Shown here piece after piece: positions 1-60,973 of a DNA stretch of 64,000 nt. The stretch comes from Desulfobacteraceae bacterium (GTDB taxonomy: Bacteria; Desulfobacterota; Desulfobacteria; Desulfobacterales; JACKCP01). Each line of letters opens with the position of its first letter. The first letter of the stretch is position 1. Position numbers and translations under genes: made by a program. Below the pieces are notes generated by a model. That model was not told the DNA's origin. It ran no database searches and saw only the letters and a list, made by a program, of their open reading frames with translations. Location of the stretch: the NCBI GenBank assembly GCA_020633955.1, contig JACKCP010000006.1:34404-98403 (forward strand), given 5' to 3'.

Positions 1-1563
1 CAAAGAAAAGAAGAAAAAAAAGATCACTGCCTCCCTGAAATAACTGCACTTATAAGCAGGGATCAATTCAGGGCAATAACACTTGAACCTGAAAAAACAT
101 TTATTCTTCAGGGAAGTGCCGGAAGCGGGAAAACCACCATAGGACTTCACAGAATTGCATATATGTCATATTCATACCCTGAAAAATTTCCCCCCTATAA
201 AATTCTTGTGGTAATGTACAACAAATCCCTTCAAAAATATATTGAGGGAGTTCTTCCAGACCTTGGGATCTCAGGAGGAGTAAAAACACTCACATTCCAT
301 AAATTTGCGTTTTCAATTCTTTCAAGGGAAAAATTTGTATCAAAATGGAGAAACGGAAATCCGGAAACTTATAAAATCAAAAAAAGCGGTTTTGCAGTAA
401 AACTTGTTCTGGCTTATTGTGAAAGACTTTTTGAGAAATCAATGGAATGGATTACACAAAAATTTCATGAATTTAAACTCTCAAAAGAAATCGAGACATT
501 AAACAGTGCCTCATCATTAAAAGAACTGATAAATATCATAAGGGGCTTCCAATCAATTTCAACTGATTCAATTGAAAATATAACAATTAAAAAGATTTCA
601 TCAAAACTATTGGCAAGACTTAATAACCACAATCTTGATCTTTATAAAATTTTTACGGATGAAGACCTAATCAAAACAACAGCTCAAAAGGAAAATTTTG
701 AAATTGACGAAAGGCTTTTAAGTGAGCTTGTAACCAATCAGAAAAATTTTTATGAAAACCAGGAAAGCGATTTTGCCGATATTGGAATTCTTATTTATCT
801 TCTCCAGCTAAAAGGAGTTGAATCAGCACTTCCAGGCTATTCACATATCATGGTTGATGAGGCACAGGATTTAAGTCCTGCAGAACTTGCAGCTGTAATA
901 AATGCATCTGATGAAAAAAAGTCAGTTACAATCTGCGGAGACATGGCACAAACAATTAAAAACGATGTCTACTTTGATAAAAAAAAAGGTTTTGCAGGGT
1001 TTGTGAGGGAGCTTTCATCTTCAAACAGGGCAGCTACAGCTGCAGAAACCTTAAAAGTCGGCTACAGGGCAACAAAAGAAATAATGGATTTATCATGGTA
1101 TATAATGAAGGAACAAAACCAAAATGCATCTTATTCAAGAAAAGGTGATCCTGTTTCAATAATTTCAACTTCTTCTTTTGATGAAACTGTTTTCAGAGCA
1201 AAAGCATTTATCCTGTCCACCCATTCAATGCGCCCAAACTCTTTAAGCTGCATAATATGCAAATTCAAGAAAGACGCTGACAAAATTTTTGAAGAACTTA
1301 ATAAGACTTCCGAAATTAAAGATTTAAGAAGACATGAAAAAGATGATTTTATTTTCACTCCTGGAGTTATTGTAACCAATGCACATCAGGTTAAAGGACT
1401 TGAATTTTCAAATGTTATTTTCATAAACCCCTCAGATTCTCAGTTTCAGGATAATGATCATGACAGAATGCTTCTTCACGTTGCTTTTACAAGAGCTTCT
1501 GAGAAACTTATAATAATCGGCCATGAAAAAATGGCATATAATCTTTCAGATTATAATCCTTAA
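1..1563 (+). CDS. Superfamily-1 UvrD/Rep/HelD-type DNA helicase; 5' end lies outside the window
   Basis: Frame 1 is open from base 1; the ORF track begins at an internal ATG at 163. Bases 100-160 translate to FILQGSAGSGKTTIGLHRIAY (Walker A). Later motifs are MVDEAQDLSP (II), ICGDMAQTI (III), VGYRATKEI (IV), TNAHQVKGLEFSNVIF (V) and VAFTRASEKLIIIG (VI). Confidence 0.85.
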   Translation, partial: QRKEEKKDHCLPEITALISRDQFRAITLEPEKTFILQGSAGSGKTTIGLHRIAYMSYSYPEKFPPYKILVVMYNKSLQKYIEGVLPDLGISGGVKTLTFHKFAFSILSREKFVSKWRNGNPETYKIKKSGFAVKLVLAYCERLFEKSMEWITQKFHEFKLSKEIETLNSASSLKELINIIRGFQSISTDSIENITIKKISSKLLARLNNHNLDLYKIFTDEDLIKTTAQKENFEIDERLLSELVTNQKNFYENQESDFADIGILIYLLQLKGVESALPGYSHIMVDEAQDLSPAELAAVINASDEKKSVTICGDMAQTIKNDVYFDKKKGFAGFVRELSSSNRAATAAETLKVGYRATKEIMDLSWYIMKEQNQNASYSRKGDPVSIISTSSFDETVFRAKAFILSTHSMRPNSLSCIICKFKKDADKIFEELNKTSEIKDLRRHEKDDFIFTPGVIVTNAHQVKGLEFSNVIFINPSDSQFQDNDHDRMLLHVAFTRASEKLIIIGHEKMAYNLSDYNP

Positions 1564-1564
1564 C

Positions 1565-1736
1565 GTAAGTGTTCAGTTTAAATCGGAACGGCTGCTTAAT
1601 TATTTCCAAGCCTCATCCCTGCTTAAACTCCCAAACAGGAGATAAAAAAACATCTCCTGAAACCGGATCAGAAAAAATACGGCAGCTATTCTTCAACCAA
1701 ACTGGCTTTTTTCTGAGTTTCAAGCTTAATAGTTAA
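1565..1736 (+). mobile_element. Hairpin MITE family A, copy A1 (diverged full-length copy)
   Basis: Aligns along its length with copies A2/A3/A5: gtaaGtgttcag...caggagataaaaaaacatctcctg...ctgagtttcaagcttaatagttaA. It starts 1 nt after the helicase stop codon. The flanking 8-mers (tccttaac / tcagcaac) match only 5 of 8. Confidence 0.75.
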
Positions 1737-2383: not shown

Positions 2384-4823
2384 GATTTTTTTTCACATCC
2401 CTCACAAGCACCGGATAAATTTTTATTATTTCATTAAAGCCATCAATATCAAAATCCTCTGCATAGCCTTTTATATCTTTCCCATAAATTATAAAGCAGT
2501 CTGCTCTGAATTTTTCTCCTGCCTCAATAAGTTCATCTGCAAAGTCCGATACATCAGAAAAAATAAAATTATTCCTGACATCCATCCATTTATTCATCAA
2601 TACCAAATCAAATACCTCACAAAACTTTTCAAAACTGTATTCATAACTTTGACTTATCTTAAAAGAATCTTCTTCCTTAAAATATCCTGAATCCTTTTTT
2701 GTGTGAACCACAGCATTTAAATCCCTTGAATAAGGTATGAATTTTATCAGTTCAGATACAAGCAAGTCCCTTGTAAAAGGCTTTTCAAGAAACCCAGATA
2801 TCCCCTTGCTTTTAATTAATTTAACGTCTCCTGAAACTGCAATCACCATTACTTTTTTTATAAGCTGATTTTGCTCCAGATACTCAATTACGTCCATACT
2901 TTTACTGTCATTAAGATTCATATTCAAAAGAATTATATCAGGAAGTCTTTTTCTTAAAAAATTAATTGTCTGCAGTGAATCTGAAGTCTGAAAAAGTCTT
3001 ACTCCAAAAGGTTTTAAAAGATATGAAACAAGTTCCCTGTCTGAAGAATCATGGTCTGCAATGAGTATTTCAGTCTTTTTTAAAAACATAACTGATGAAA
3101 AACATTTTGAATATTTATAATTTCCAAGTTCAGACTGCTCCACAAGCGCAACATCTCTCAGCAGCACCCTGAAGCTGCTTCCAAAGCCCGCCTTTGAATC
3201 AAGGGTTATCTCTCCTTTCATCATTTCAGCAAGTTTTTTTGCAATTGCAAGCCCAAGACCTGTTCCACCATATTCCCTTGAATCCTGTCCGTTCTGCTGT
3301 GTAAATGGCTCAAAAATTTTTGAGTGCTGATCAAGAGGTATGCCTATTCCTGAATCTTTTACTTCAATTACAATATCTGCTTTTTTTATCACGCCTTCCC
3401 TGAACACCGGATATAAAAAAAGATTTACAAACCCTTTTTCTGTAAATTTAAGTGAATTGCTTAAAAGATTTACAATAATCTGCTTTACCCTCAGCTCATC
3501 AAGAAGAAGATATTTTGGAGTTGAAGGATCTATTATAAGATTGAATTCAAGTTTTTTTTCATTTGCAGTAATTTCAAGTTCAGATTTTACAATATCCAAA
3601 ATATTTCTCAAATCGCAAGGCTGATAATATATTTCAAAACGCCCTGACTCAATTTTTGACATATCAAGAATATCGTCAATAAGATTAAGAAGAGCTTTTC
3701 CTGAATTTTTAATATTTTCTATATATTTTTTTGCTCTTGGGGTTAAATCCTCTTCATTAAGGATTTCTGCAAATCCAAGGACTGAATTCATTGGAGTTCT
3801 GATTTCATGCGAAACATTGGCAAGAAATTTTGATTTTGCAGCGTCCGCCTCATGGGCTTTTTTCATGGCAGCTTCTGCTTCTTTTTTTGCACTGCCAAGC
3901 TCTATTGCTTTTTTTCTCCATGAAAGAAAAAGAAAAAGCATCAAAAAAAACAAACCAAGAGATAAAAAAAATGCTCCAATAAAAACCCGGTCTACAAAAA
4001 ATCTTTTATATTTAAATTGAATCCACTTATTATCAATCTCCTCTTTTTTTTTATCACTGATTGAATTTAAAGATTTTTCAAGAATTGACTGCAAAATCTC
4101 ATGCTTTTTGTTCACACCAAAACACAAATCATACTCATAATCTAAAATCTCGCTAACCCTCACATTTCCTATCATATTTTTTGACTTAAAATATAAAAGA
4201 ACTGGAATATTGGTTATTACTCCGTCAATTTTTCCCATGGAAAGTAAAAAAATTGATTCAAGAATATTATCTGTATATTCAATTATAATATCAGGATAAT
4301 TTTCTCTTATATACCCCTCTGCTGCATATCCTTTTATAAGACCTATTTTTTTTCTGCTCATTTTTTTTAAATGCAGATCCCTGGTGGCCTCTGAGCTTAT
4401 TACAAGAATATTTTGAACTTTTATATATGGAGAAGTGAAATTAAGATATTTTTGTCTTTCCTTTGTATTCTGTACCGAACTTATAAGATCAGCTTCATTG
4501 TTTTTCATTACATCAAGGGCTTCCTGCCAGGTTAAGGTAAAGACATATTTAAATTTAAGGCCTGTAATTTTTGATATTTCCTTTAAATAATCTGAGGCAA
4601 CACCCATATGGGCAGATTTTTTAAGATCAGTAAAATCTATTGGCGCAAAATTAGGGGCAGGAACCACCCTGATCTCTGGATTTGATTTAATCCACTCCTT
4701 TTCCATTTTTGATAAAGTGAGTTTTTTGTGATCGTCTTTAATAAAATAAATCATTAAAAAAAAGATTAAAACCAAAAGAGGAGACAATAATATAAGAATA
4801 AGCCTGAAACTTTTTTTTTCCAT
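2355..4823 (-). CDS. Hybrid sensor histidine kinase with periplasmic solute-binding (SBP family 3-like) domain, HisKA, HATPase_c, a pseudo-receiver and a C-terminal helical domain
   Basis: An N-terminal TM segment is followed by a periplasmic region (IRVVPAPNFAPIDFTD...) and a second TM segment. The H-box is FLANVSHEIRTPMNSV, and the N/G boxes are NLLSNSLKFT, DSGIGIP and GGTGLGLAIA. The receiver-like region is EILIADHD...PDIILLNMNLND. Confidence 0.85.
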   Translation of the reverse strand: MEKKSFRLILILLSPLLVLIFFLMIYFIKDDHKKLTLSKMEKEWIKSNPEIRVVPAPNFAPIDFTDLKKSAHMGVASDYLKEISKITGLKFKYVFTLTWQEALDVMKNNEADLISSVQNTKERQKYLNFTSPYIKVQNILVISSEATRDLHLKKMSRKKIGLIKGYAAEGYIRENYPDIIIEYTDNILESIFLLSMGKIDGVITNIPVLLYFKSKNMIGNVRVSEILDYEYDLCFGVNKKHEILQSILEKSLNSISDKKKEEIDNKWIQFKYKRFFVDRVFIGAFFLSLGLFFLMLFLFLSWRKKAIELGSAKKEAEAAMKKAHEADAAKSKFLANVSHEIRTPMNSVLGFAEILNEEDLTPRAKKYIENIKNSGKALLNLIDDILDMSKIESGRFEIYYQPCDLRNILDIVKSELEITANEKKLEFNLIIDPSTPKYLLLDELRVKQIIVNLLSNSLKFTEKGFVNLFLYPVFREGVIKKADIVIEVKDSGIGIPLDQHSKIFEPFTQQNGQDSREYGGTGLGLAIAKKLAEMMKGEITLDSKAGFGSSFRVLLRDVALVEQSELGNYKYSKCFSSVMFLKKTEILIADHDSSDRELVSYLLKPFGVRLFQTSDSLQTINFLRKRLPDIILLNMNLNDSKSMDVIEYLEQNQLIKKVMVIAVSGDVKLIKSKGISGFLEKPFTRDLLVSELIKFIPYSRDLNAVVHTKKDSGYFKEEDSFKISQSYEYSFEKFCEVFDLVLMNKWMDVRNNFIFSDVSDFADELIEAGEKFRADCFIIYGKDIKGYAEDFDIDGFNEIIKIYPVLVRDVKKNLERNHDRIK

Positions 4824-6030: not shown

Positions 6031-6099
6031 GAATTAATATCTTCCCGAATCCTGGTTAAATTAAAAGCTATGACGGCAAAGAAATTAACTGAAAAAAAT

Positions 6100-6167
6100 T
6101 TAATTGCATCAATTAAAATAAAAAGTTAACGTTAACCAGGTAATATTAACGTAAACCTAAACGTTAA
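6100..6167. promoter_or_regulatory. Cluster of palindromic candidate activator-binding sites (UAS)
   Basis: Inverted repeat ttaattg-cat-caattaa at 6100-6116. Perfect 12-bp palindrome gttaacgttaac at 6125-6136. Two related half-palindromes, ttaacgtaaa (6146-6155) and taaacgttaa (6158-6167). All lie 70-140 bp upstream of the candidate -24/-12 promoter and just before the activator's own start. Confidence 0.35.
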
Positions 6168-6177
6168 TGGAGAAAAA

Positions 6178-7551
6178 ATGAACGATCATGACCTTTGGAC
6201 GTGCAGATATGTTAACCAGATTATTGATGCAATGGCAGATGGAGTTTTTACAATAACTCCAGATGGTAAAATAGTGTCATGGAACAAATCAATGGAAAGG
6301 ATAACAGGATATTCAAAGGAAGAAGCAAAGGGTAAGGACTGCACATTCATCCATTTTTCAAGCTGTCTTGACGGATCATGTCCAAACGGAATAAAAGACT
6401 GCGGAATACTTGACGCAACATCTGATTTTTCAAGGGAGTGCGTATTATTGTCAAAGCATAAGGAAGAAATTCCCGTACTCAAGAGAGCCAGAGTTTTATT
6501 TGATAGCAGCAGAAATATCAGTGCAATTGTTGAGACAGTAACTGATTTAAGAGAATTGAAAAAGGCAAGGCAAAAAGCTCTTGATGCACAAAATCAGCTT
6601 GCAATAAAAACGGATCTCAAAAAAAATATTATTGGCATAAGCCCGGCAATTGAAGAGCTTCTGTCAAAAATCAAGGTTGCATCAGCAAGTGATGCCAATA
6701 TTCTTATCCAGGGCGAAACCGGAACCGGTAAGGAATTATGTGCAAATGCAGTCCATTATCTTGGCAGAAGAAATGCATTTCCCTTTGTAACCTTAAACTG
6801 TTCGGCTCTTCCAGAAAATCTCCTTGAAAGTGAGCTTTTCGGCCATGTAAAAGGTTCTTTTACAGGAGCATTTAAAGACAGGAAAGGAAGATTTGAAGAG
6901 GCTGAAAACGGTACACTTTTTCTTGATGAAATTGGAGAAATTCCCCTTTCAGTTCAGGTAAAGCTTTTAAGGGCAGTCCAGGAAAGAGAAATCGAAAGGG
7001 TTGGAGATTCCAAAAAAATCAAGACAAACATAAGGATAATTGCAGCCACAAATAAAGATCTTTCAGAGCTTGTTGAAGAAAAAAAATTCAGAGAAGACCT
7101 TTATTACAGACTCAGGGTTTTTCCCATAACAATTCCCCCATTAAGAAACAGAAAAGAAGATATCCCCCTTCTTCTTGATTTTTTTATAAAAAAATTAAGA
7201 AAGGAAACAAAAAAAAATATACTCAAGGCTGACAAAAAAGCTGTAAATGCCCTGATGAACCATGACTGGCCGGGAAATGTCAGGGAACTTGAAAATGCAG
7301 TTTCTTATGCATTTGTGGTTGCAGGCCAGGAAATACTTTCAAAAGACGATTTTCCTCCAGAAACAGTCTGTTCAAGCAAAAAAAATCAAATTGCCATTCA
7401 AAGAAACCCAAAAAAACCCGATTCAAAAAAAGAGCTTTTGAAATTACTTGAAGAATGCGGCTGGAATAAGGCAGAAGCTGGAAGAAAAGCGGGGCTCAGC
7501 AGAACAACAATATGGAAATATATGAAAAAATGGGATATACCATTAAACTGA
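6178..7551 (+). CDS. Sigma-54-dependent transcriptional activator (PAS - AAA+ - Fis-type HTH)
   Basis: PAS domain at the N-terminus. AAA+ motifs are GETGTGKE (Walker A), [15 protein letters not shown] (GAFTGA loop), LFLDEIGE (Walker B) and [17 protein letters not shown]. The C-terminal HTH is [18 protein letters not shown]. Confidence 0.92.
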
Positions 7552-7552
7552 A

Positions 7553-7720
7553 GTAACTGTTCAGCTCAATTTAGAACGGCTGCTGCATTCTTTCTGAGCC
7601 TCATTCTCGCTTAAGCTCCGAGGCAGGAGATAAAAAAACTATCTCCTGAAACCGGCTCAGAAAAAATACAGCATCCGTCGCCAAAACGCTTTTTTCTCAG
7701 TTTTTAAGCTGAATAGTTAC
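7553..7720 (+). mobile_element. Hairpin MITE family A, copy A2 (full length, perfect 8-bp TSD AAACTGAA)
   Basis: Termini are gtaactgttcagctcaa / ttaagctgaatagttac (inverted). The central perfect hairpin is caggagata-aaaaaaac-tatctcctg. The sequence aaactgaa is present at both 7545-7552 and 7721-7728. Confidence 0.9.
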
Positions 7721-7984
7721 AAACTGAATTTGATATTTTGCCTGTTCGGGGCTAAAGTGAGTGCATAAAATTGACCTCAGGCTGTTTTGCAATATTAAAG
7801 AATGGCCTGAATACGGATTAACCGGAAGCAAAGCTTTTTAGTTCAGCAGGTAAATACTCAATTAAAAAAAACTTGCTGATATATCAGATAAAAGTTTAAT
7901 AAAATGCCTGGCCTGCACTGAATATGACTGATTTTAAAATCGTTCAATCAGGGCTTATTTGATATTTTTTAATTTCTGTTTTTT

Positions 7985-10900
7985 TTGGAGAAAGATTTGA
8001 ATAATCCAACAAACCCTAACACTGAAACCCATCTTAACAATTCAAAAAATGAGAAAATCACTGATCTCATAATATCTGGGTACAAGCTCAACAAAATAAT
8101 TTATGAGGGTAAAATCTCAAAGATAATAAGAGGTTTTGACACTTTAAAGAAGCAGCCTGTTGTAATTAAAATACTAAATCCGGAAGAAGTTTCACCCATT
8201 CAGACAATGAGGTTCAGGCAGGATTTTGAAATAAGAAAACACCTTGAATCTGATTTTATTGTAAAAGCATACACTTTCCAGTTTTATCACCACAGGCCCT
8301 TCATTGTAATGGAAGACTTTAATGCAAAATGTCTTAATACACTCTTCAAGACCAGTCAGCCACATGTCTCACAGTTTTACTCCATTGCTGAAAAAAGCCT
8401 TGAAGCACTTGAATACATCCATAAAAAAGAAGTCATCCACAAAGATATCAAGCCATGCAATATACTTTTGAATGATGAAACAGGAGTTGTGAAATTAACT
8501 GATTTCGGCATCTCAACTATGCTTTTTCAGGAGCATCCATCTTTTCTTAATCCAAGATCACTTGAAGGCACAATTGGTTTTATTTCTCCTGAACAGACCG
8601 GAAGAATGAACAGGTTCCTCGACTATAGGACAGATTTCTATTCAATTGGCGCAACATTTTATTTTCTATTGTCAGGCCATCCACCTTTTTCCGAAGATTC
8701 GCCAATGGCAATGATCCACGCACATTTAGCAAAGGAGGCAATGCCGCTTTATCTGGTCAATAAAGATGTCCCCTTTTCCCTTTCTGAAATTATAATGAAG
8801 CTCCTTTCAAAAAACCCTGAAGACAGATACCAGAGTATTGAAGGAATTTTATCTGACCTTAAAAAATCTGAAGAGATATTTAAAAGCGGTGAAAAAAATA
8901 AAACCTTTGCCCTTGGAAAAACAGATTTTTCAGAAAAATTTACAATACCTGAAAAAATTTACGGTAGAAAAAAAGAACTTAACTCTTTAATTGAATCCTT
9001 TTTCAAAATCAAAGGAGGATCAGATGAGATTGCAATTATTGAAGGCTATTCAGGATCAGGAAAAACAGTAATTGTTAAGGAACTGCAAAAACAGATTTCT
9101 GATCCAGACTGTTATTTTATCTCAGGAAAATACGAGGAATTCTCTGAAAGTCAGGCATACAGAGGGATAATCCAGGCCTTTGAAGAGCTTATTTCAGAAA
9201 TTCTTGGAGAGAACCAGGATACAATTAATAATTTCAAAAGTGAAATTTCCAGATCAATAGGTGAAAACGGAAAAATACTTACTGATCTTTTTCCGAAACT
9301 TCAAATTATTACAGGTCCTCAAAAAGAAATTCCAAACCTTGGGGTTTCTGAAACAAGAAGCAGATTTAATTATACATTCCGGGAGTTTGTCAAGATTTTC
9401 ACAAAAAACCAGAGAAAACTAATTTTATTCCTTGACGACATGCAGTGGATAGACTCTGCTTCTCTAGGTCTTTTAAAGGCTCTTTTTTCTGGAGAAAAAA
9501 TTAAAAATTTTCTATTTATAGGATCATACAGAAAAGACGAAGTAAACAGCAGCCATCCAGTTTCAATTTTTTTAGAAGAAACAAAAAAACAAAATGAAAA
9601 TGTAAATACAATAGAACTGAAGCCTCTTTCTTTTAAGGATACACTTGATCTTGTTTCAGACACAGTTATCTGCGAAAAATCCAGGGCCTATAAATTATGC
9701 GAACTTATATTCAATAAAACTGGAGCAAACCCATTTTTCATTAAAGAATTTCTCATGTCTCTTTACAGAGAAAGACTTATTTCATTCAGCAAAAATACAA
9801 AAAAATGGGAATGGGATATTGAAAAAATAAAGTCACAGAATATAACCCAAAACGTTGTTTCACTCCTTATTGACAGAATAGAAAAACTACCGGAAAAATC
9901 ACTTGATATTTTAAAAAAGGCAGCATGCATTGGAAGCAGAACAAGTTACAAAAAACTTTTTTCTGTCTGTGAGATGAGAGAAAAAGAGTTTAACATTTAT
10001 CTATTTGAAATATTAAAACAAGGTATGCTTATACCTGTTTCCGGATACAGCCCGGATCAAAATACTGATCCTGAAAAAACTGACATAAAAAAAAATATAA
10101 GGCCCGATTATATTTTCCAGCACGACAGACTGCGCCAGGCAGCCTATGAAACCATAAAAAAGGAAAATAGAACATCAATCCATCTTTCCATAGGAAAGAA
10201 ATTCTTTGAAATTGCAGATAAAGATTTTTTTGAACAAAACCTTTTTGAAATTGTAAACCATATGAACGAAGGCAGAGAGCTTTTAGCAGATAATGACGAC
10301 TTTGACCTTCTTGTTCACCTAAATTATATTTCAGGCAAAAAAGCTAAAAATTCAGGTGCCTACCAGAGAGCTCTCAAATATTTTGAAATCACCCGGTCAA
10401 TTCTGCCCCAAAACAATAATGACATTTTTTACAAAACAGTATTAAAAGAGCTTGCTGAAACAAAATATCTGTGCGGAGAACTTCAGGAATCAAGAAAAAT
10501 ACTTGAAGATCTTTTAGTTTCCGAAAAAGACATAATAGAAAAATGCAGAATTTATGAGCTTTTAATTTTAATATGCACAATGAGCGCAAGCTATGACGAG
10601 GCACTCATAACTGGTAAAACAGCCCTTGATCTTCTTGAGGTAAATCTGCCAATAGAAAATATTGAGTCTGAAACTTCAACAGAAGTTGCCAAAGCAATTA
10701 AAAAACTAAAAAAATCCCAAATAAAAAAACTTATAAACACACCTGAAGCCAAAGATCCTAAAATCAGAACTGCAATGAAAATTCTCATAAGACTTCAGGC
10801 AACCTCATATTTTTTCAAGACAAACCTTTATCCCTTTATTCTTGCAAAAATGGTTAACTTATCACTAGATTACGGACATACTCCAGAATCTGCTAAAGGT

Positions 10901-13900
10901 TATGCAAGTTTTGGCAATATTTACTCAAACAAAACAAAAGATTATAAAACGGCCTACGAACTTGGAACACTGGGACTGAACCTGAGTAGAAAATTCAGGG
11001 ACAAAAAGATTGAATGCCAGTCAAGGCTTTCAATTGCCGCATTTCTTATTCACGGTGTTGATCATCTTAAAGAAGGTGAGGATCATATTTTTCAGGGATA
11101 TCAGTCGGGACTTGAATCCGGTGAAATTCAATATGCAGGACTTCTTTTGTTCAACAAAATTCTAAACAGATTTTTTCAGGGATACAGACTTGATTATCTG
11201 GAAAAAGAAATTAATGATGATCTGAACTTCTGCATAAAAACAGGAAACAGCATAGCAATTGATGTAATAACACCATTTAGACTTGCAGTTTTGAATCTAA
11301 GAAAAAAAACAAAAAATCCATTTGATTTTTCAGATGAATGCTGTTCATTCAATGACTATTATGAAAAAATGACAAAAAATCAAAGCATGCCTGCACTTTT
11401 TCTTCTATGGCTTTTAAAGGCATTTGTATTGTATCTGAACGGCAAAATACAAAACGCGGCAAATGCAATATCAAAGGCTGAAAAATACTGGGCTGCAACA
11501 ACAGGATATTTTTCAGACACAGAATACCTTTTTTTGAAGGCACTCATACTGGCTTCAGTGTTCAAGGATTCAGATAATGATGAAAAACAGGAAATACTTG
11601 AAACAATAAAAAATATTTCCCAGATTCTTAAGCACAAGTCTTTGACCGCACCTCAAAATCATCTTTCAAGACACTATCTTGTTGAAGCAGAGTTTTACAG
11701 GATTAAAGGAGAGAATGAAACAGCTTCAAACTTTTATGACCAGGCAGTTGAATCAGCATCTCAATATGATTTTATTCAGATTGAGGCCATTGCAAATGAA
11801 CTTTGCGCAAATTTCTGGACAGACCTGAATAAAAAGAAACTCTCAAGGCCATACCTTGAAGATGCCTGCGAAGCTTATGAAAAATGGGGTGCTCTGAGAA
11901 AAATTAAAAGCCTTGAAAAAAATCTGCCGGGTTATTCATCAAAAACCACCAAACTCCAGCTATTCAATACCCAGACCTCAAGTTACCCTGATTCTGAAAT
12001 TGATTATTCATCAGCACTTGATATGGAGTCAGTGGCAAAAACATCCAGGGTTATTTCAAGCGAAGTCAACATTGAAAAACTCCTTAAAAAATTAATGAGG
12101 ATAATGATTGAAAGTGCAGGAGCACAAAAGGGATTCATTATTTTAAAAAAGGGAGAGTCTCTTTACATCCAGGCCTATTCCGACTCCAAAACAGTAAATG
12201 TACTTCAGGCTAAACCAATTGACAAAACAGATGAAATAGCAGAGTCAGTTGTAAGATATGTAATTCATACTTCTGAAGATGTAATAGTAGATGATATTTC
12301 TACAAATACAAAGTTTAACAGTGACAGATGGCTTAGAAAAAACAATTCCGGCTCTCTTTTGTGCACACCTTTAAAGTATAAGGACAAAACAATTGGAGCC
12401 CTTTATCTTGAAAACAGTATTGCCACCAGGGTTTTTTCAGGAGAAAGGCTTAGAATTCTAAAATATCTTTTACCACAGGCAGCAATATCAATTGATAATG
12501 CCATAATATTTGCAGAAACTGCAAAACTAACAAAAAGCCTTGAAAAAGAAGTTGAACACAGGAAAAAAATACAGGAAGAACTTGAAAAAAGCGAACAAAA
12601 ATACAGAGAAATATTTGAAAATACAAGAGATATTTACATTGAAACTGCAATTGACGGAACAATCATTGAGGTAAGTCCTTCAGTTGTTGAATCAGCTGGC
12701 TATACAAGGGAAGAGCTGGTTGGTGAAAAAGTGAGCAGAAGATATATCGATCCCGCTGATCAAAAAAGTTTAATGGAAAATTTATTTAAATTCGGCAAAG
12801 TTTCAAATTTTGAAGCAAAGTGCAAAACAAAAAACAACAACTTTGCAGATTCTTCAATAAATGCAATGGTAATAAAAGACAAAAATGGAAAGCCCGAAAA
12901 AGTAATTGTCTCAATAAGAGACATAACTGAAAAAAAACAGCTTGAGTTAAAACTTTTCCACTCACAGAAAATGGAGGCAATAGGAACTCTTGCAGGCGGA
13001 ATAGCCCATGATTTTAATAATATCCTGGCAGGAATAACAGGATATACAGATATTGCCAAACTTAAGCTGAAAAAAGAACCTGAAAAAATCCCCATCTACC
13101 TTGATGGAATATCAAGGGCTGGTGAAAGAGCAAAAAATCTTGTTAGCCAGATTTTATCTTTCACAAGAAACACCGAAACAAAAAGAAAGAACATAAACCC
13201 TCTTCCAGTTATAAAGGAAGCATTGAAACTTCTAAGATCATCGATTCCCTCATCCATTGAAATGGTGGAGGAAATTAAAACAAAGGCACCTCTTATAAAA
13301 GGCAACACAACCCAGCTTCATCAGGTGATAATGAATCTTTGCACCAATGCAGCCCACTCAATGAAAGAAACCGGAGGTGTGCTTACAACAAGAATAGAAA
13401 CAATTAATATTAATAAAAACAACCTGTTTGAAACAAGCTTTGGAGAAATCACCCCAGGAGATTACCTGAAAATAAGCGTAAAAGACACGGGCCACGGAAT
13501 TCAGGAACAAATTGGAGCAAAAATTTTTGACCCATATTTCACAACTAAAAAAACAGGCGAAGGAACAGGGCTTGGACTTTCAATGGTACATGGAATTGTT
13601 AAAAACCATGGAGGATATTTAAAATTCTCAAGCATACCAGATAAAGGTACCTGTTTTGAAATTTATTTTCCACTTGCCCAGGAATTCATGAAACAGCCAA
13701 AGCAGAAAAAACACTACAATCCAATAACCGGAGGCGAGCAAATCCTTTTTGTAGACGATGAGGAGATTCTTGCCGAACTCATGGAAGAGCTGCTTCAGGA
13801 ATCAGGCTACAAAGTTAAATGTGTCAACAGTTCAGTTGAAGCCTTGAACCTGTTTAATGAGAATCCAGATAAATATGATATAATTATTACTGATATGACC

Positions 13901-14107
13901 ATGCCGGTAATGACAGGAGTTAAACTCTGCAAGGAAATCTTTAAAGTAAGACCGGATATTCCTGCCATAATATGCACTGGATATTCAGAAGCTATCCCGG
14001 AAAAATCATTTGAAAATACAGGAATAAGAAAAAAACTTTTAAAACCATTTAATATTGAGGAACTTAACACTGCAATAAGAGATATTCTTGAAGAAAATAA
14101 ACACTAA
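7985..14107 (+). CDS. Giant multidomain sensor: Ser/Thr protein kinase - P-loop NTPase (AAA_16/STAND-like) - helical repeats - GAF - PAS - HisKA/HATPase_c - receiver
   Basis: STK motifs: VIHKDIKPCNILL, LTDFGIS, GFISPEQ. NTPase motifs: IIEGYSGSGKTVIV (Walker A), LILFLDDMQWID (Walker B). A GAF region lies near SRVISSEVNIEKLLKKLM and a PAS domain near YREIFENTRDIY. The H-box is GGIAHDFNNIL and the G-box is GEGTGLGLSMV. The REC domain reads ILFVDDEE...DIIITDMTMPVMTG...LKPF. The start is TTG at 7985 or TTG at 7997; the latter has GGAG 6 nt upstream. Confidence 0.88.
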   Translation: MEKDLNNPTNPNTETHLNNSKNEKITDLIISGYKLNKIIYEGKISKIIRGFDTLKKQPVVIKILNPEEVSPIQTMRFRQDFEIRKHLESDFIVKAYTFQFYHHRPFIVMEDFNAKCLNTLFKTSQPHVSQFYSIAEKSLEALEYIHKKEVIHKDIKPCNILLNDETGVVKLTDFGISTMLFQEHPSFLNPRSLEGTIGFISPEQTGRMNRFLDYRTDFYSIGATFYFLLSGHPPFSEDSPMAMIHAHLAKEAMPLYLVNKDVPFSLSEIIMKLLSKNPEDRYQSIEGILSDLKKSEEIFKSGEKNKTFALGKTDFSEKFTIPEKIYGRKKELNSLIESFFKIKGGSDEIAIIEGYSGSGKTVIVKELQKQISDPDCYFISGKYEEFSESQAYRGIIQAFEELISEILGENQDTINNFKSEISRSIGENGKILTDLFPKLQIITGPQKEIPNLGVSETRSRFNYTFREFVKIFTKNQRKLILFLDDMQWIDSASLGLLKALFSGEKIKNFLFIGSYRKDEVNSSHPVSIFLEETKKQNENVNTIELKPLSFKDTLDLVSDTVICEKSRAYKLCELIFNKTGANPFFIKEFLMSLYRERLISFSKNTKKWEWDIEKIKSQNITQNVVSLLIDRIEKLPEKSLDILKKAACIGSRTSYKKLFSVCEMREKEFNIYLFEILKQGMLIPVSGYSPDQNTDPEKTDIKKNIRPDYIFQHDRLRQAAYETIKKENRTSIHLSIGKKFFEIADKDFFEQNLFEIVNHMNEGRELLADNDDFDLLVHLNYISGKKAKNSGAYQRALKYFEITRSILPQNNNDIFYKTVLKELAETKYLCGELQESRKILEDLLVSEKDIIEKCRIYELLILICTMSASYDEALITGKTALDLLEVNLPIENIESETSTEVAKAIKKLKKSQIKKLINTPEAKDPKIRTAMKILIRLQATSYFFKTNLYPFILAKMVNLSLDYGHTPESAKGYASFGNIYSNKTKDYKTAYELGTLGLNLSRKFRDKKIECQSRLSIAAFLIHGVDHLKEGEDHIFQGYQSGLESGEIQYAGLLLFNKILNRFFQGYRLDYLEKEINDDLNFCIKTGNSIAIDVITPFRLAVLNLRKKTKNPFDFSDECCSFNDYYEKMTKNQSMPALFLLWLLKAFVLYLNGKIQNAANAISKAEKYWAATTGYFSDTEYLFLKALILASVFKDSDNDEKQEILETIKNISQILKHKSLTAPQNHLSRHYLVEAEFYRIKGENETASNFYDQAVESASQYDFIQIEAIANELCANFWTDLNKKKLSRPYLEDACEAYEKWGALRKIKSLEKNLPGYSSKTTKLQLFNTQTSSYPDSEIDYSSALDMESVAKTSRVISSEVNIEKLLKKLMRIMIESAGAQKGFIILKKGESLYIQAYSDSKTVNVLQAKPIDKTDEIAESVVRYVIHTSEDVIVDDISTNTKFNSDRWLRKNNSGSLLCTPLKYKDKTIGALYLENSIATRVFSGERLRILKYLLPQAAISIDNAIIFAETAKLTKSLEKEVEHRKKIQEELEKSEQKYREIFENTRDIYIETAIDGTIIEVSPSVVESAGYTREELVGEKVSRRYIDPADQKSLMENLFKFGKVSNFEAKCKTKNNNFADSSINAMVIKDKNGKPEKVIVSIRDITEKKQLELKLFHSQKMEAIGTLAGGIAHDFNNILAGITGYTDIAKLKLKKEPEKIPIYLDGISRAGERAKNLVSQILSFTRNTETKRKNINPLPVIKEALKLLRSSIPSSIEMVEEIKTKAPLIKGNTTQLHQVIMNLCTNAAHSMKETGGVLTTRIETININKNNLFETSFGEITPGDYLKISVKDTGHGIQEQIGAKIFDPYFTTKKTGEGTGLGLSMVHGIVKNHGGYLKFSSIPDKGTCFEIYFPLAQEFMKQPKQKKHYNPITGGEQILFVDDEEILAELMEELLQESGYKVKCVNSSVEALNLFNENPDKYDIIITDMTMPVMTGVKLCKEIFKVRPDIPAIICTGYSEAIPEKSFENTGIRKKLLKPFNIEELNTAIRDILEENKH

Positions 14108-15258: not shown

Positions 15259-15275
15259 TTTTAATAAAAACCCAA

Positions 15276-15445: not shown

Positions 15446-15665
15446 AAACCCAATAGCTTTTAGTACCACTGCCTGATTTTTCTGTAAAGGCAGGATAAAA
15501 TTTATTACTTTACACATTAAAAACTCTTTATTAGTTAATAATTCAACAAAATTATCTTTTTTGTCCATTTGAGTTTCGCATGAAAAATTAATTCTTAAAA
15601 TCGGGGATTCCAGAAGATGGTTTTGAACTTTAACCGGTATTAATTCATGTTTTGGAGCGCATTAT

Positions 15666-16609: not shown

Positions 16610-16765
16610 GTTACTATTCAGTTTAAATTGCAACGACTGCTGCATTTTTATGAGCCTTATTTAAGCTCTGAGCCAGGAGATAGAAGAAACTATCTCCTGA
16701 ATCCCCTTAAAAAAAATACAGCATCCCTCAGCAAACTGGCTTTTTCTATGTTTTCAGAGAAACCG
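16610..16765 (+). mobile_element. Hairpin MITE family A, copy A4 (degenerate; right terminus eroded)
   Basis: gttactattcagtttaaattgcaacgactgctgcattttt...ccaggagatagaagaaactatctcctg...acagcatccctcagcaaactggcttttt aligns with the other copies. The right end is unrecognisable and abuts the stop codon of the minus-strand gene at 16766. Confidence 0.65.
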
Positions 16766-18259
16766 CTATTTAATCCAGATTTCAACTCGCCTGTTTTTTG
16801 ATCTTCCTGATTCAGAATCATTTGAAGCAACAGGAATTTCTTCCCCTGCACTTAACATGGAAATGCCTGAAATCCCCCTTGACCTTAGTTCATCATATAC
16901 AATTTTAGTCCTTTTTGATGCAAGATCATAATTATACAAATAATCTCCGTTTGAATCTGTAAAACCAGCCAGAATTATTTTTTTATCAGAATTTTCAGGC
17001 TGCTTTAAAAAGTCCACAACCCTGTAAAGATCCCTTAAAGCCCTGTTATCAAGGATAAAACTGTTTGGTCTGAATCTGAAGTTGAGGGAAAGCCTTTTTG
17101 AACCCTTGATTTTTTCCATGTAATTATTCAGAACAGATTTATCCTGAAATGCCTGATTCTCCTCAAACTCGTGACTGAACGCATTGACTGTCAGGTCAAC
17201 AAACCCATTTTCCCTTGCCATTTGCTGCCCTTTTTCAGAAAGTGCAAAATTTATGAATTCCAATGTGTGTGAATTATAAGGAACAGAAGGAGTATAAAAG
17301 TAAAGCCTTCTTGACAAAGGATAATCTTCAGTTGCAACAGTAAAAAAGGTTGGAAGAATTTTTGCTCCGTTTCCTTCAGATATTGCAAGTGCTTTTGAGC
17401 TTCCAATATATGGAAGACCAGTAAAACCTATTGAATTTGGATCATTTGAAACGGATTTTGAAAGTATTTCATTTGATTCAAATCTTTTAGCCCCGGAAAA
17501 AAGTTTATTCTTTTTTAGAATAAGAGACTTGAAAGTATCAAAGGTACCTGATTTGTCATCTCTTGCATATATTTCAATTTCTCCTTCAATATCAATTCCT
17601 GCTTCTTTCCAGGTTCTTATTTTTCCCTGAAAAATTTCTGACAAAAGATTTGCCGATATACCAGTCATTGGATTTGAAGGGTGTACAATTACTGCAATAC
17701 CGTCAAGTGCTGCAACATGCTCTGAGGCAAAGGATTCCATATCTCCAAGAGCCAAAAGACTTAAAACCTCTTTTTCCTTTATTTTTCTTGATGCCATTCC
17801 AATATCACATAATTTATTTTCAAGATCCAAAAAACCAGTTGAAGATCCGTGGGCTTTTATTTCAATTGCAAGGATTTCATTATTTCTCATACCTGTAATT
17901 ATTTTTTCTTCTTTTCCTGTTGTCTTTTGAAATATTTCACTGCATCCAAGTTTTTCAAGATAACCAGCAGCAAGAGAAGGCGCAAAAAAAGCACCTATTG
18001 TGTTTGACCCGCTCAGCTTTAATATTGTTTTTATTTCTTTTTCTTCATTTATTTTGTAAGAATTATTATTTTCAGCAGCAGGCAAAGCATCCGCAGGTAA
18101 ATTTTTGCCTGGACTTTCCAAAACAACCATTTCTTTTTCGATTTTATTTTTTTCGGTCAGTGATAAGTCATTATAAACAAAATAAAAACATGCAGATATA
18201 AAAACAATCACAAATATCAGTAAGCCAAAAATTCCAACAATCTCTTTATCCTTGAACAT
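16766..18259 (-). CDS. PstS-like periplasmic phosphate-binding domain fused to a C-terminal OmpA-family peptidoglycan-binding domain
   Basis: I place the start at the ATG at 18259 (MFKDKEIVGIFGLLIFVIV, a TM/signal anchor), with GGAG 7 nt upstream. The PBP-like core contains SGSNTIG and DKSGTFDTF. The OmpA_C-like end reads ILAGFTDSNGDYLYNYDLASKRTKIVYDELRSRG...NRRVEIWI. Confidence 0.75.
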   Translation of the reverse strand: MFKDKEIVGIFGLLIFVIVFISACFYFVYNDLSLTEKNKIEKEMVVLESPGKNLPADALPAAENNNSYKINEEKEIKTILKLSGSNTIGAFFAPSLAAGYLEKLGCSEIFQKTTGKEEKIITGMRNNEILAIEIKAHGSSTGFLDLENKLCDIGMASRKIKEKEVLSLLALGDMESFASEHVAALDGIAVIVHPSNPMTGISANLLSEIFQGKIRTWKEAGIDIEGEIEIYARDDKSGTFDTFKSLILKKNKLFSGAKRFESNEILSKSVSNDPNSIGFTGLPYIGSSKALAISEGNGAKILPTFFTVATEDYPLSRRLYFYTPSVPYNSHTLEFINFALSEKGQQMARENGFVDLTVNAFSHEFEENQAFQDKSVLNNYMEKIKGSKRLSLNFRFRPNSFILDNRALRDLYRVVDFLKQPENSDKKIILAGFTDSNGDYLYNYDLASKRTKIVYDELRSRGISGISMLSAGEEIPVASNDSESGRSKNRRVEIWIK

Positions 18260-18407
18260 AAAAAATCTCCAATACTTGAATATGGTAAAACTTGTTAAAC
18301 CTGAAAAACAAACAGGCAAAACCAAAGAGATACTAATACATGGGGATTGTTAGATTTATGCTAAATGAAGTTTTTTTTTGACTAGTTATGGATTGGTTAA
18401 TTATGTG

Positions 18408-20523: not shown

Positions 20524-20645
20524 AGGCTGATCCAAAATTGAAGATTTTTGTTTATTTCATAGAAGATGAAAAATATAATTCTCAGGATACATGGAATATT
20601 TTGAAGATTAAATTTTTCAGCTTACTTCGAAATTTACAAAAAGAC
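20524..20645 (+). repeat. Intergenic repeat family B, copy B3 (mini-ORF on the plus strand, 20591-20611)
   Basis: Aligns over ~120 bp with the reverse complements of 30587-30710 and 41004-41124. It contains ATGGAATATTTTGAAGATTAA (MEYFED stop), preceded by AGGA. Confidence 0.7.
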
Positions 20646-20801
20646 CGTTTACCTTCAGCCAGAAATTAATCTGCAAAACAAATCAGATATAATCTGGAAA
20701 TGATTGTGAAAAGTTGACAATTAAGTTTGTTTAGGGCAAAAGTAGTAATATATCAATTTCCTTTTCATTGCTCATTACAAAAAATCTCAGGAAGGTTATA
20801 A

Positions 20802-27358: not shown

Positions 27359-27525
27359 GTAACTGTTCAGTTCAATTTAGAGCGGCTGCTCCATTCTTTC
27401 TGAGCCTCATTCTCGCTTTGCTCCGAGGCAGGAGATAAAAAAACTATCTCCTGAAACCGGCTCAGAAAAAATACAGCATCCCTGGCCAAAACGGCTTTTT
27501 CTCAGTTTTTAAGCTGAATAGTTAC
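27359..27525 (+). mobile_element. Hairpin MITE family A, copy A5 (full length, 7/8 TSD)
   Basis: Near-identical to A2. The flanks are ataaattt (27351-27358) and aaaaattt (27526-27533). It lies between divergent ampG and the PAS-Cys4 gene. Confidence 0.88.
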
Positions 27526-30551: not shown

Positions 30552-30586
30552 GACTTTTCCTAATATAATTGCTTAATCAAAACTGT

Positions 30587-30710
30587 CTTTTTTGCCAATT
30601 TCGACGTAAGATTCAAAATTTAATCTTCAAAATACTCCATTTATTCCTGCTGTTAGATTTGGCTTCTTCCATAAATGAACAAAAAATTCCAGTTTTTGGC
30701 CAGTCATTAT
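30587..30710 (-). repeat. Intergenic repeat family B, copy B1 (mini-ORF on the minus strand, 30640-30620)
   Basis: The minus strand reads ...AGGAATAAATGGAGTATTTTGAAGATTAAATTTTGAATC... This copy lies in the 5' region of the 397-aa gene, whose start is at 30551 on the same strand. Confidence 0.7.
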
Positions 30711-30871
30711 TGTTTTAAAACAAATCAATTAAATTGGAAAATAAAATTCCAATTTAGGTTGAGAGTTTTTTGGAAATTAAGTAATTAAATCTTTACACAA
30801 AAAAACCTCATGTTATATGACAGTATTCAGTATTTTAATTAAAACAACTTAAAAGAGCAGGGAAGAAAACA

Positions 30872-34854: not shown

Positions 34855-34960
34855 GTTTCATTTACGACGATTCAAAATTTAACCGTAGAAATACATTAAG
34901 TATTTTGAGGATTAAATTTTGAATCAGGCTTTCAATGGACTAAAAAATTTTGGTTAAACC
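34855..34960 (+). repeat. Intergenic repeat family B, degenerate copy B4 with head-to-head core duplication (hairpin)
   Basis: gattcaaaatttaacc (34869-34884) and ggattaaattttgaatc (34909-34925) are inverted. The right arm aligns with the B core, but the mini-ORF start is lost (ATT AAG TAT TTT GAG GAT TAA). Confidence 0.5.
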
Positions 34961-40890: not shown

Positions 40891-40914
40891 AGACTTTGAT
40901 AGTCTTAAAGAATT

Positions 40915-40969
40915 GTAACTCAGTTCAATTTAGAATGGCTTTTTCTCAGTTTTTCAGCTGAATAGTTAC
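40915..40969 (+). mobile_element. Hairpin MITE family A, copy A6: 55-bp internal-deletion derivative retaining both termini, perfect TSD AAAGAATT
   Basis: gtaactcagttcaatttagaatggct|ttttctcagtttttcagctgaatagttac. The sequence aaagaatt is present at both 40907-40914 and 40970-40977. Confidence 0.85.
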
Positions 40970-41003
40970 AAAGAATTTATCTATTTACTGGCGAACAAAA
41001 AAT

Positions 41004-41124
41004 GTTTTTTTGCACATTTCGGCGTAGATCTCAAAATTTAATTCTCAAAATACTCCATGTCTTCCCGGGGCTGAATTTTTCATCATCCCCAGACAAACAA
41101 AACCAGTTTTAGGTCGATCATTAC
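41004..41124 (-). repeat. Intergenic repeat family B, copy B2 (mini-ORF on the minus strand, 41058-41038)
   Basis: The minus strand reads ...GGGAAGACATGGAGTATTTTGAGAATTAAATTTTGAGATC... This copy lies just 3' of the minus-strand radical SAM gene, whose stop is at 41135. Confidence 0.7.
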
Positions 41125-41134
41125 TTAATAAAAA

Positions 41135-42175
41135 TCAATCACTTTTTATTTCAATAAAAAATGACTCAGGAATAATTGAAGAATCTTTTGTTACAGCAAT
41201 ATTTTTAAATCCAAATCTTTTTTTCAAATTATGAAAGTTAGAATTTTTTAAACCTCTTGCTGCAGACTCAAAGGATGGATTCAGGTGGATTAAAAGAGTT
41301 TTTTCAAAAGTTTCTTTTTCTGAAACAATTATTTTTATAACTGCTTTTTTATAAAAACTTTTTGAAATAACAAGTTCACCAAATGACGGGTGCCATGGGC
41401 CGCTTACAATATTATCATTTTGTGCGGCCTCAGAAGGAAGACCCATTCTGATTATTTTTATATTATTTTTTACTGAAAAATCTCTTATCAAGGATGAAAT
41501 ATCAACAGCCTTTTCAAGTGTCAAAGGCTTGAATAAACCCTTGTTGTATAATTTTTCCAACTGGGTATTTTTTAAGATAACCAGGGGATATATTCTCAAA
41601 TAATCAGGTTTTGCAAATTGTAGAAATTTCAAAGTTTTAAAAATACTCTGCCTTGTTTCTCCTGGAAGACCAGGCATAATCTGAAGTCCAAGTTTAATAT
41701 TTTTAAGCTCACTTTTTATAAGCTCAACAGCATTAAAAGAATCTTTTGCTGTATGCCCTCTTCCTGATTTTCTCAACACCTTATCATCCATTGACTGAAT
41801 TCCAAGCTCAATTGTCTGAATATTATAACCGGACAACAGAGCAATTTTCTCCCTGGAAACAGTATCTGGCCTGGTTGAAAACCTTATCCCCCTGTTGCTG
41901 CCTCCCTTGCAAAATGTATCAGCAATTTCAAGGTATTTTAAAATAACATTATTTTCCATTCCCAAAAAATTACCCCCAAAAAAAGCTATTTCAACTGATG
42001 ATTGCAAATTTTTAGAATAGGAAAGAAAAGTATCAAAATAAGATAAAAGCTCGCCTTTTTCAGGAAGAGCAGGCGCAGCTTTGCCAGTTACAAGATTTTG
42101 ATTGCAAAAAAAGCATTTATTGGGACAGCCGTAAAATGGTATAAAAACAGGTATTATAATATGATTATTCATCAT
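41135..42175 (-). CDS. Radical SAM protein (Elp3/HemN-like core)
   Basis: FYGCPNKCFFCNQ is a CxxxCxxC motif within a TIM-barrel-like core. It overlaps the rnc stop by 11 nt. Confidence 0.75.
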   Translation of the reverse strand: MMNNHIIIPVFIPFYGCPNKCFFCNQNLVTGKAAPALPEKGELLSYFDTFLSYSKNLQSSVEIAFFGGNFLGMENNVILKYLEIADTFCKGGSNRGIRFSTRPDTVSREKIALLSGYNIQTIELGIQSMDDKVLRKSGRGHTAKDSFNAVELIKSELKNIKLGLQIMPGLPGETRQSIFKTLKFLQFAKPDYLRIYPLVILKNTQLEKLYNKGLFKPLTLEKAVDISSLIRDFSVKNNIKIIRMGLPSEAAQNDNIVSGPWHPSFGELVISKSFYKKAVIKIIVSEKETFEKTLLIHLNPSFESAARGLKNSNFHNLKKRFGFKNIAVTKDSSIIPESFFIEIKSD

Positions 42176-60856: not shown

Positions 60857-60973
60857 GTAACTGTTAAGCTCCCAGGCAGGAGATAAAAAAACTATCTCCT
60901 GAAACCAGCTCAGAAAAAATACTACAGCCGTCACCAAAACACTTTTTTCTCAGTTTTTAAGCAGAATAGTTAC
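60857..60973 (+). mobile_element. Hairpin MITE family A, copy A7: left-arm deletion derivative (117 bp)
   Basis: gtaactgt is joined directly to taagctcccaggcaggagataaaaaaactatctcctg...ctcagtttttaagcagaatagttac. About 50 bp of the left arm is missing. The flanking 8-mers (atagaatt / aaataatt) match 6 of 8. Confidence 0.8.

Follow-up and report, generated by a model that had tools for sequence, protein, structure and literature searches.

A hairpin-forming miniature transposable element in a Desulfobacteraceae genome and its probable link to single-gene ISBst12-group insertion sequences

Seven copies of a hairpin-forming repeat

We analysed a 64-kb stretch of a Desulfobacteraceae metagenome-assembled genome (MAG; contig JACKCP010000006.1, positions 34,404 to 98,403), hereafter called the window, which has a G+C content of ~34% and ends in a 5S-23S ribosomal RNA (rRNA) operon. 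The window contains a repeated, non-coding, hairpin-forming element of ~168 bp, which we interpret below as a transposable element of the miniature inverted-repeat type (MITE). Its reference copy sits between a sigma-54 activator gene and, directly downstream of that gene, an open reading frame (ORF) of 2040 residues (7985-14107, + strand) with Ser/Thr kinase, AAA_16, GAF, PAS and histidine-kinase domains. The window was searched by blastn with the reference copy (7553-7720) as query and by nhmmer with a profile built from nine copies. Both searches found exactly the same seven copies and no others, which confirms the size and number given in a preceding reading of the letters alone (the sequence-only reading). 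The positions listed there hold overall, except that the copy at 16610 runs to ~16767: its blastn match ends at 16754, and the profile search extends it to 16767. The copies range from 55 to 172 bp and are listed below with their duplications.

1565..1736, + strand: old diverged full-length copy, ~172 bp, 79% identity by blastn (match 1565-1735); ends decayed to GTAAGTG...GTTAA; flanks TCCTTAAC / TCAGCAAC, a 5/8 match; 1 nt separates the element from the preceding stop codon of ORF 163..1563
7545..7552: left duplication of the target site at the 7553 copy, AAACTGAA, which includes the TGA stop of the sigma-54 activator gene 6178..7551
7553..7720, + strand: reference full-length copy, 168 bp; left end GTAACTGTTCAGCTCAA, reverse complement of the right end GTAACTATTCAGCTTAA; central stem-loop CAGGAGATA-7 nt-TATCTCCTG
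7721..7728: right duplication of the target site at the 7553 copy, AAACTGAA
15276..15445, - strand: full-length copy, 170 bp, between divergent genes, 89% identity to the reference; perfect duplication AAACCCAA at 15268-15275 and 15446-15453
16610..16767, + strand: copy that is old and diverged (77% identity); its right end has decayed and overlaps the stop codon of ORF 16766..18325 on the minus strand, and no duplication can be recognised
27359..27525, + strand: full-length copy, 167 bp, between divergent genes, 95% identity to the reference; duplication ATAAATTT / AAAAATTT, a 7/8 match
40915..40969, + strand: 55-bp mini form with both ends kept, found by blastn as two short pieces; perfect duplication AAAGAATT at 40907-40914 and 40970-40977
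60857..60973, + strand: internally deleted copy of 117 bp that lies ~76 bp downstream of the 5S rRNA gene's 3' end; blastn match 60864-60973, 93% over the right 110 bases; duplication ATAGAATT / AAATAATT, a 6/8 match

All seven copies are intergenic, lying between ORFs. They occur in both orientations, and the genes that flank them are divergent, convergent or tandem.

Alignment of the copies together with their flanks revealed that all conservation is lost outside the element ends (GTAACTGTTCAGCT / GTAACTATTCAGCT). On the left the conserved block terminates precisely at GTAAC and on the right at GTTAC, in line with the inverted GTAAC termini that the sequence-only reading had described; it does not extend beyond them, as the flanks do not align. 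The terminal inverted repeats are 14 bp long (GTAACTRTTCAGYT). The 17-mer at the left end, GTAACTGTTCAGCTCAA, has 10 matches with up to 3 mismatches in the window, compared to 0.22 in shuffled sequences, and none of 100 shuffles reached 10. Tabulation of the flanking 8-mers at the seven copies gave five with direct repeats: 8/8 positions match at three copies and 7/8 at one, which are the four already noticed, and a fifth copy shows 6/8. For equally spaced random 8-mers in the window, the chance of an 8/8 match is 4.5e-5 and that of a 7/8 match is 1.2e-3. The flanks of the two most diverged copies match at 5/8 (1565) and 3/8 (16610); these two oldest copies have lost their duplications.

A single long hairpin is predicted for the whole element, with z scores of -6.1 as DNA and -8.2 as RNA against shuffled controls. 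At its centre lies caggagata-AAAAAAC-tatctcctg, so the imperfect palindrome with a central 9-bp hairpin was described correctly at the outset, except for the loop, which has 7 nt and not 8. The longest stop-free stretch in any window copy amounts to 55 aa, and tblastn with the transposase of the insertion sequence described below found no match in the window, in agreement with the earlier view that no copy contains an ORF and that the element is non-autonomous.

The loss of the interior from the 55-bp mini copy can be explained by a deletion between two ACGGCT direct repeats of the full element. Mini copies of 55-57 bp with the same internal junction occur in two different organisms, at 40915-40969 of the window and at ~7632-7687 of the metagenome contig L119. 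This shared junction reflects either recurrent slippage or a mobile mini subfamily.

Insertion sequences with matching ends

A metagenome collection was scanned with a degenerate 23-base pattern of the element end, and inverted pairs of the end motif were then sought. The closest insertion sequence (IS) found is a 1511-bp element at 3017-4527 of the metagenome contig L157, flanked by a perfect 8-bp duplication AAACTATT. It has a single ORF of 482 aa with the Pfam domains DDE_Tnp_IS66 (PF03050, 3e-45) and DUF6444 (2e-20), in addition to zf-IS66 below the family cutoff. The first 17 bases of its right end GTAACTGTTCAGCTCAAATGAGAGC are identical (17/17) to the left end of our element, GTAACTGTTCAGCTCAA, and its left end GTAACTATTCAGCCCAAAGGGCTGAGA (GTAACTATTCAGC..AAA..CTGAGA) resembles the right end of the element, GTAACTATTCAGCTTAAAAACTGAGA. 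Judged from these alignments, the element combines the two ends of such an IS, inverted in orientation, with an unrelated palindromic core between them. The right end of the IS also encodes the last codons of the transposase and its TGA stop. In many relatives the stop comes after a final ...C or ...S, in keeping with the conserved (A/T)GCTGA of the end sequence.

Further copies of the L157-type IS were found at six other sites, where they terminate six other contigs, each with different flanks. Short-read contigs (L123, L132, L148, L164, L174 and L136) end inside such an IS, and the Logan contig L004, which corresponds to window 6088-7564, ends exactly at the start of the MITE. These contig ends indicate that the repeats fragment the assemblies of these organisms.

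More than 7,600 relatives of the L157 transposase were retrieved at E<=1e-20; those that bear a name are called "IS66 family transposase". Four ISs or partial ISs of such relatives were inspected for their ends, and each of them carries a single ORF.

L203 (Brocadia MAG): 66% identity to L157 TnpC; 1682 bp; GTAACTATTCAG at both ends
L202: 63% identity to L157 TnpC; 1512 bp; ends GTAATTATTCAG / GTAACTGTTCAG
L206 (Pseudanabaena plasmid): 48% identity to L157 TnpC; GTAACTACTCAG at the right end, left end not found
L205 (B. thuringiensis plasmid): 43% identity to L157 TnpC; 1629 bp; both ends GTAACTACTCAG, with the perfect duplication CTTTTTTC

The ISs of L157, L202, L203 and L205 have the common end GTAACT(A/G)(T/C)TCAG, and the matching ISs measure 1511-1682 bp with one ORF of 470-484 aa each. 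At L203 (1262-1281 and 2964-2983), a simple 8-bp duplication is lacking; instead, (T/C)AATTTCAAAAA stands on either side of the IS in offset positions, a hint that the history of this insertion was more complex.

The sequence-only reading had taken GTAA termini and 8-bp duplications as the hallmark of the IS66 family, in agreement with published descriptions (PMC11946415, PMC12898284), and had postulated a parental IS66-like element. An IS with matching ends does exist, in the metagenome contig L157, and an IS66-family gene was not found in the window. The full-length ISs that share these ends are, moreover, of the single-gene ISBst12 type and not of the tnpA/tnpB/tnpC type that had been envisaged. 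The likely mobiliser is accordingly a single-gene ISBst12-group IS rather than an IS66 with tnpA, tnpB and tnpC, because the end of the L157 IS matches that of the element and the motif is kept both in distant relatives and in ISDge4, a member of this group.

Altogether, the element is short and non-coding, has inverted ends and 8-bp duplications, and occupies many unrelated intergenic sites, as is typical of MITEs in every feature tested. We are therefore highly confident that it is a genuine MITE, which very probably originated from, and was moved in trans by, a single-gene ISBst12-group IS of the IS66 family. We propose that a DDE transposase of the TnpC type would recognize ~14-25 bp of the ends (GTAACTRTTCAGYT...), upon which the element would integrate via an 8-bp staggered cut to leave the 8-bp direct repeats that are observed. 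The left end of the element corresponds to the right end of the IS, and its right end to the left end of the IS. The interior forms a long imperfect palindrome that shows no sign of selection and decays by point mutation and by internal deletions, the latter giving rise to the 55-bp and 117-bp copies. In carrier genomes, the autonomous partner would be an IS of 1.5-1.7 kb with GTAACTRTTCAG ends and a DDE_Tnp_IS66 gene.

Copies elsewhere, gene boundaries and alternative explanations

The host is an uncultured bacterium of the Desulfobacteraceae/Desulforegulaceae type, a sulfate-reducer-type organism. The gene for a protein beside the reference copy recurs with 99.9% DNA identity in assembly GCA_020633935.1, which NCBI lists as the MAG of a "Desulfobacteraceae bacterium", and a Desulforegulaceae MAG is among the nearest relatives of the host PBP1A (80-85% aa identity). 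A 28-mer of the central hairpin has exact matches in MAGs of two other species. One of them, a Desulfobacteraceae MAG (L001), carries a full copy with 91% identity and a perfect duplication AAATAAAT; the other, a Desulforegulaceae MAG (L002), carries a copy of 84% identity whose left end is truncated. The metagenome contigs L160, L163, L184 and L119 contain additional copies or short derivatives. The genes next to the copies outside the window are not orthologous to those at the window insertion sites, which indicates independent insertions. Candidate insertions common to the window and L002 or L160 were rejected on the same ground, as the neighbours are related only at paralogue level (~45-60% aa identity). 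Among the other matches to the end sequence, a 24-bp match at L138, with no IS and no second end nearby, is solitary or due to chance, and a scan of viral contigs with the 17-mer end gave 106 single chance matches and the element in none.

Empty sites were sought in related species. In two of them (L207 and L208), the gene order around PBP1A is fully conserved, with 76-78% nucleotide identity. The spacer between the PBP1A and radical-SAM genes is 64 and 99 bp long in these species and empty, compared to 244 bp in the window, where it contains the 55-bp mini copy plus a second repeat. No copy of the element was found in the 18-22 kb of L207 and L208.

This second repeat belongs to an unrelated intergenic family of ~140 bp with the conserved core CAAAATTTAATCCTCAAAATACTCCATGTATTCCTG. 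It lies 29 bp after the mini-MITE at 40915, and in L002 it directly follows the MITE copy. The syntenic regions of L207 and L208 lack this family, and Rfam gave no credible match. Its members are as follows.

30579-30729, + strand: second repeat family
40998-41139, + strand: second repeat family
20534-20650, - strand: second repeat family
34857-34925, - strand: second repeat family
L002 ~7085-7230: second repeat family

Several observations weigh against an origin from, and movement by, an ISBst12-group IS. The L157 IS, the closest one found, sits in a different host, and it shares no sequence with the element beyond ~27 bp. Neither the window nor any of the Desulfobacterales loci fetched contained an IS66-family transposase gene. 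Of the relatives of the L157 transposase that bear a name, most belong to Bacteroidota, and the others include Brocadia; an origin of the transposase in the host lineage was considered and set aside, as no Desulfobacterales are among the named relatives listed. Two of the seven window copies (1565 and 16610) have no convincing duplication. Trans-mobilisation in this host is thus suggested by the matching ends and the duplication length. Finally, filled and empty sites within one species were not found, as all near-identical assemblies (99.9%) carry the insertions. Such an absence is expected, because the copies diverge by 5-28% among themselves and so predate the strains by far. The same divergence points to an old amplification, and nothing suggests that the element is active at present.

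As alternatives to an ISBst12-mobilised MITE, we considered a conserved structured RNA and a different transposase family. A structured RNA or regulatory palindrome (REP/BIME-like element, terminator or small RNA) held by selection for its fold would account for the long hairpin, which lies well beyond the shuffled controls, and for the several copies that directly follow stop codons. Covariation, one of the signs of a structured RNA named in the sequence-only reading, is lacking: in nine aligned copies with 88% pairing, none of 49 pairs changed on both sides, the substitutions just break pairs, and the covariation score falls below the shuffled mean. Rfam returned no match at gathering score or at E<=1. 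With no compensatory changes and no Rfam match, the structured-RNA explanation is left without support. A terminator or promoter role was likewise discarded, as a consensus scan shows nothing in the element and no terminator-like site in or beside the reference copy. Moreover, the copies are inserted in either orientation, next to gene pairs that are divergent, convergent or tandem, they carry target-site duplications and are absent from the matching loci of related species, all of which makes selection for an RNA fold extremely improbable. It is also very unlikely that the MITE was moved by another transposase family sharing GTAACTATTCAG, such as DDE_Tnp_1_4 (IS4/IS1380-like). This possibility arises from the contig L117 (449-1953), where GTAACTATTCAG lies on both sides of a 468-aa ORF that matches DDE_Tnp_1_4 (1e-38). 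There, however, the inverted repeat runs ~17 bp further out (TGAAGCGGCAT.CATCC), so that GTAAC is not the terminus, and no 8-bp duplication occurs at the GTAAC boundary. By contrast, GTAAC or GTAAT stands exactly at both termini of four independent ISs with an IS66-type transposase, a fifth (L206) has the motif at the one end found, and two IS66-type ISs have perfect 8-bp duplications. The 1505-bp motif pair of L117 was hence rejected as the cognate IS and belongs to a different element, of 1.5 kb, with inverted repeats of ~30 bp that contain GTAACTATTCAG internally. This internal motif may be a chance resemblance or may reflect an old relationship between end sequences.

A third explanation is compatible with mobilisation by an ISBst12-group IS: the element would be a MITE by origin, of which some copies were co-opted at, or steered upon insertion to, the 3' ends of genes, for example as modules of transcript end or mRNA stability. 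It would explain the copies that abut stop codons. Three of the seven window copies, and 5 of ~11 copies of the MITE family, lie within 2 nt of the stop codon of a neighbouring gene, compared to only 1.5% of restored intergenic positions that lie so close (binomial p ~1e-4 for the window and ~3e-7 for the family). The sites are at 1561-1564, 7549-7552 and 16766-16768 of the window, at L001 4167-4171, at L119 and at L157 4528-4535, and the 8-bp duplication of the stop-adjacent copies contains the stop. The L157 IS shows the same geometry, with a gene, its stop codon and then the GTAACTG end. Nevertheless, the null model ignores selection against promoter and terminator hits in short spacers, which alone could yield the pattern, and the sample is small. 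At most of seven partial end-copies examined (six of the L157 IS plus the related L111), no long gene terminates at the junction, and a 74-aa open frame at L174 comes nearest to it; in addition, there is no terminator in the consensus and no structural covariation. We consider a role at gene 3' ends rather unlikely. A tentative and likewise rather unlikely proposal is that ISBst12-group transposases choose, or are steered to, the first few nucleotides after a stop codon, with the duplication containing the stop. If this were true, even elements of only 55-63 bp would be complete substrates, and a target-selection rule together with minimal ends would be defined for an IS group whose mechanism has barely been studied.

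Other elements with these ends and comparison with known systems

At least five other MITE families with unrelated interiors, in hosts of ~37% to 63% G+C, share the 12-14-bp ends GTAACTATTCAG, and most of them have perfect 8-bp duplications.

L112 786-939 and L118 2387-2539: family of 153-154 bp in G+C-rich contigs, perfect 8-bp duplications
L147 5246-5417 and L194 6435-6607: family of 172-173 bp, duplication 6/8 at L147 and perfect at L194
L180 4798-5082: family of 285 bp, perfect 8-bp duplication
L122 3632-4212, L133 820-1394 and L140 1427-2005: family of ~580 bp, perfect 8-bp duplications
L176: MITE of 684 bp, duplication 7/8
L124 1407-1469: family of 63 bp, perfect 8-bp duplication

This diversity suggests that ISBst12-group ISs spawn MITEs often, in hosts that range from ~30% to 63% G+C. 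Elements of 55-63 bp with perfect duplications further suggest that ~25 bp per end may suffice for transposition. For annotation, the present work names a repeat that breaks assemblies of uncultured Desulfobacterales, and it keeps this repeat from being mistaken for a regulatory RNA. Neither point changes the understanding of MITEs; the element is an ordinary one.

In its general features, the element resembles the bacterial MITEs and related repeats Correia/NEMIS, RUP, ERIC, MITEPsy1, MITEAba12 and bcr1, which are also short and non-coding, with inverted ends, target duplications and hairpins, and are intergenic and high in copy number. They differ from it in their ends, duplication lengths and hosts; MITEPsy1, for instance, has a 4-nt duplication (PMC3189936). 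The bcr repeats were first suggested by the 34% G+C. As bcr1 is tied to a TTTAT motif and occurs only in the B. cereus group (PMC6542083), this assignment was ruled out by the host, a Desulfobacteraceae MAG, and it also fails on the duplications, which are 8-mers of varied sequence and not a TTTAT motif. In the literature searched, the coverage of which is incomplete, no described MITE assigned to IS66 or ISBst12 was found.

Canonical IS66 elements (IS66, IS679 and ISRm14 type) have in common with the present system the ends that start with GTAA, the 8-bp duplication and a DDE_Tnp_IS66-type transposase. The rule for the family is 20-30-bp repeats starting with GTAAGCG and 8-bp duplications (PMC11946415); here, by contrast, the ends start with GTAACT. 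In addition, canonical members carry tnpA, tnpB and tnpC, whereas the matching ISs have one ORF in ~1.5-1.7 kb and no tnpA or tnpB.

The closest likeness is to the ISBst12 group (ISBst12 and ISDge4). ISDge4 of Deinococcus geothermalis, an IS66-family member of this group, has the ends GTGACTACTCAGCA / GTAACTGCTCAGCA, one transposase of 449 aa and an 8-bp duplication, and its transposition has been seen (PMC12898284). The end of our element, GTAACTRTTCAGYT, shares the terminal motif with GTAACTGCTCAGCA / GTGACTACTCAGCA of ISDge4, and both make 8-bp duplications. However, the element measures 168 bp, has no transposase gene and contains an unrelated long palindrome in its interior; compared to the members of this group, it is a passenger and not an IS.

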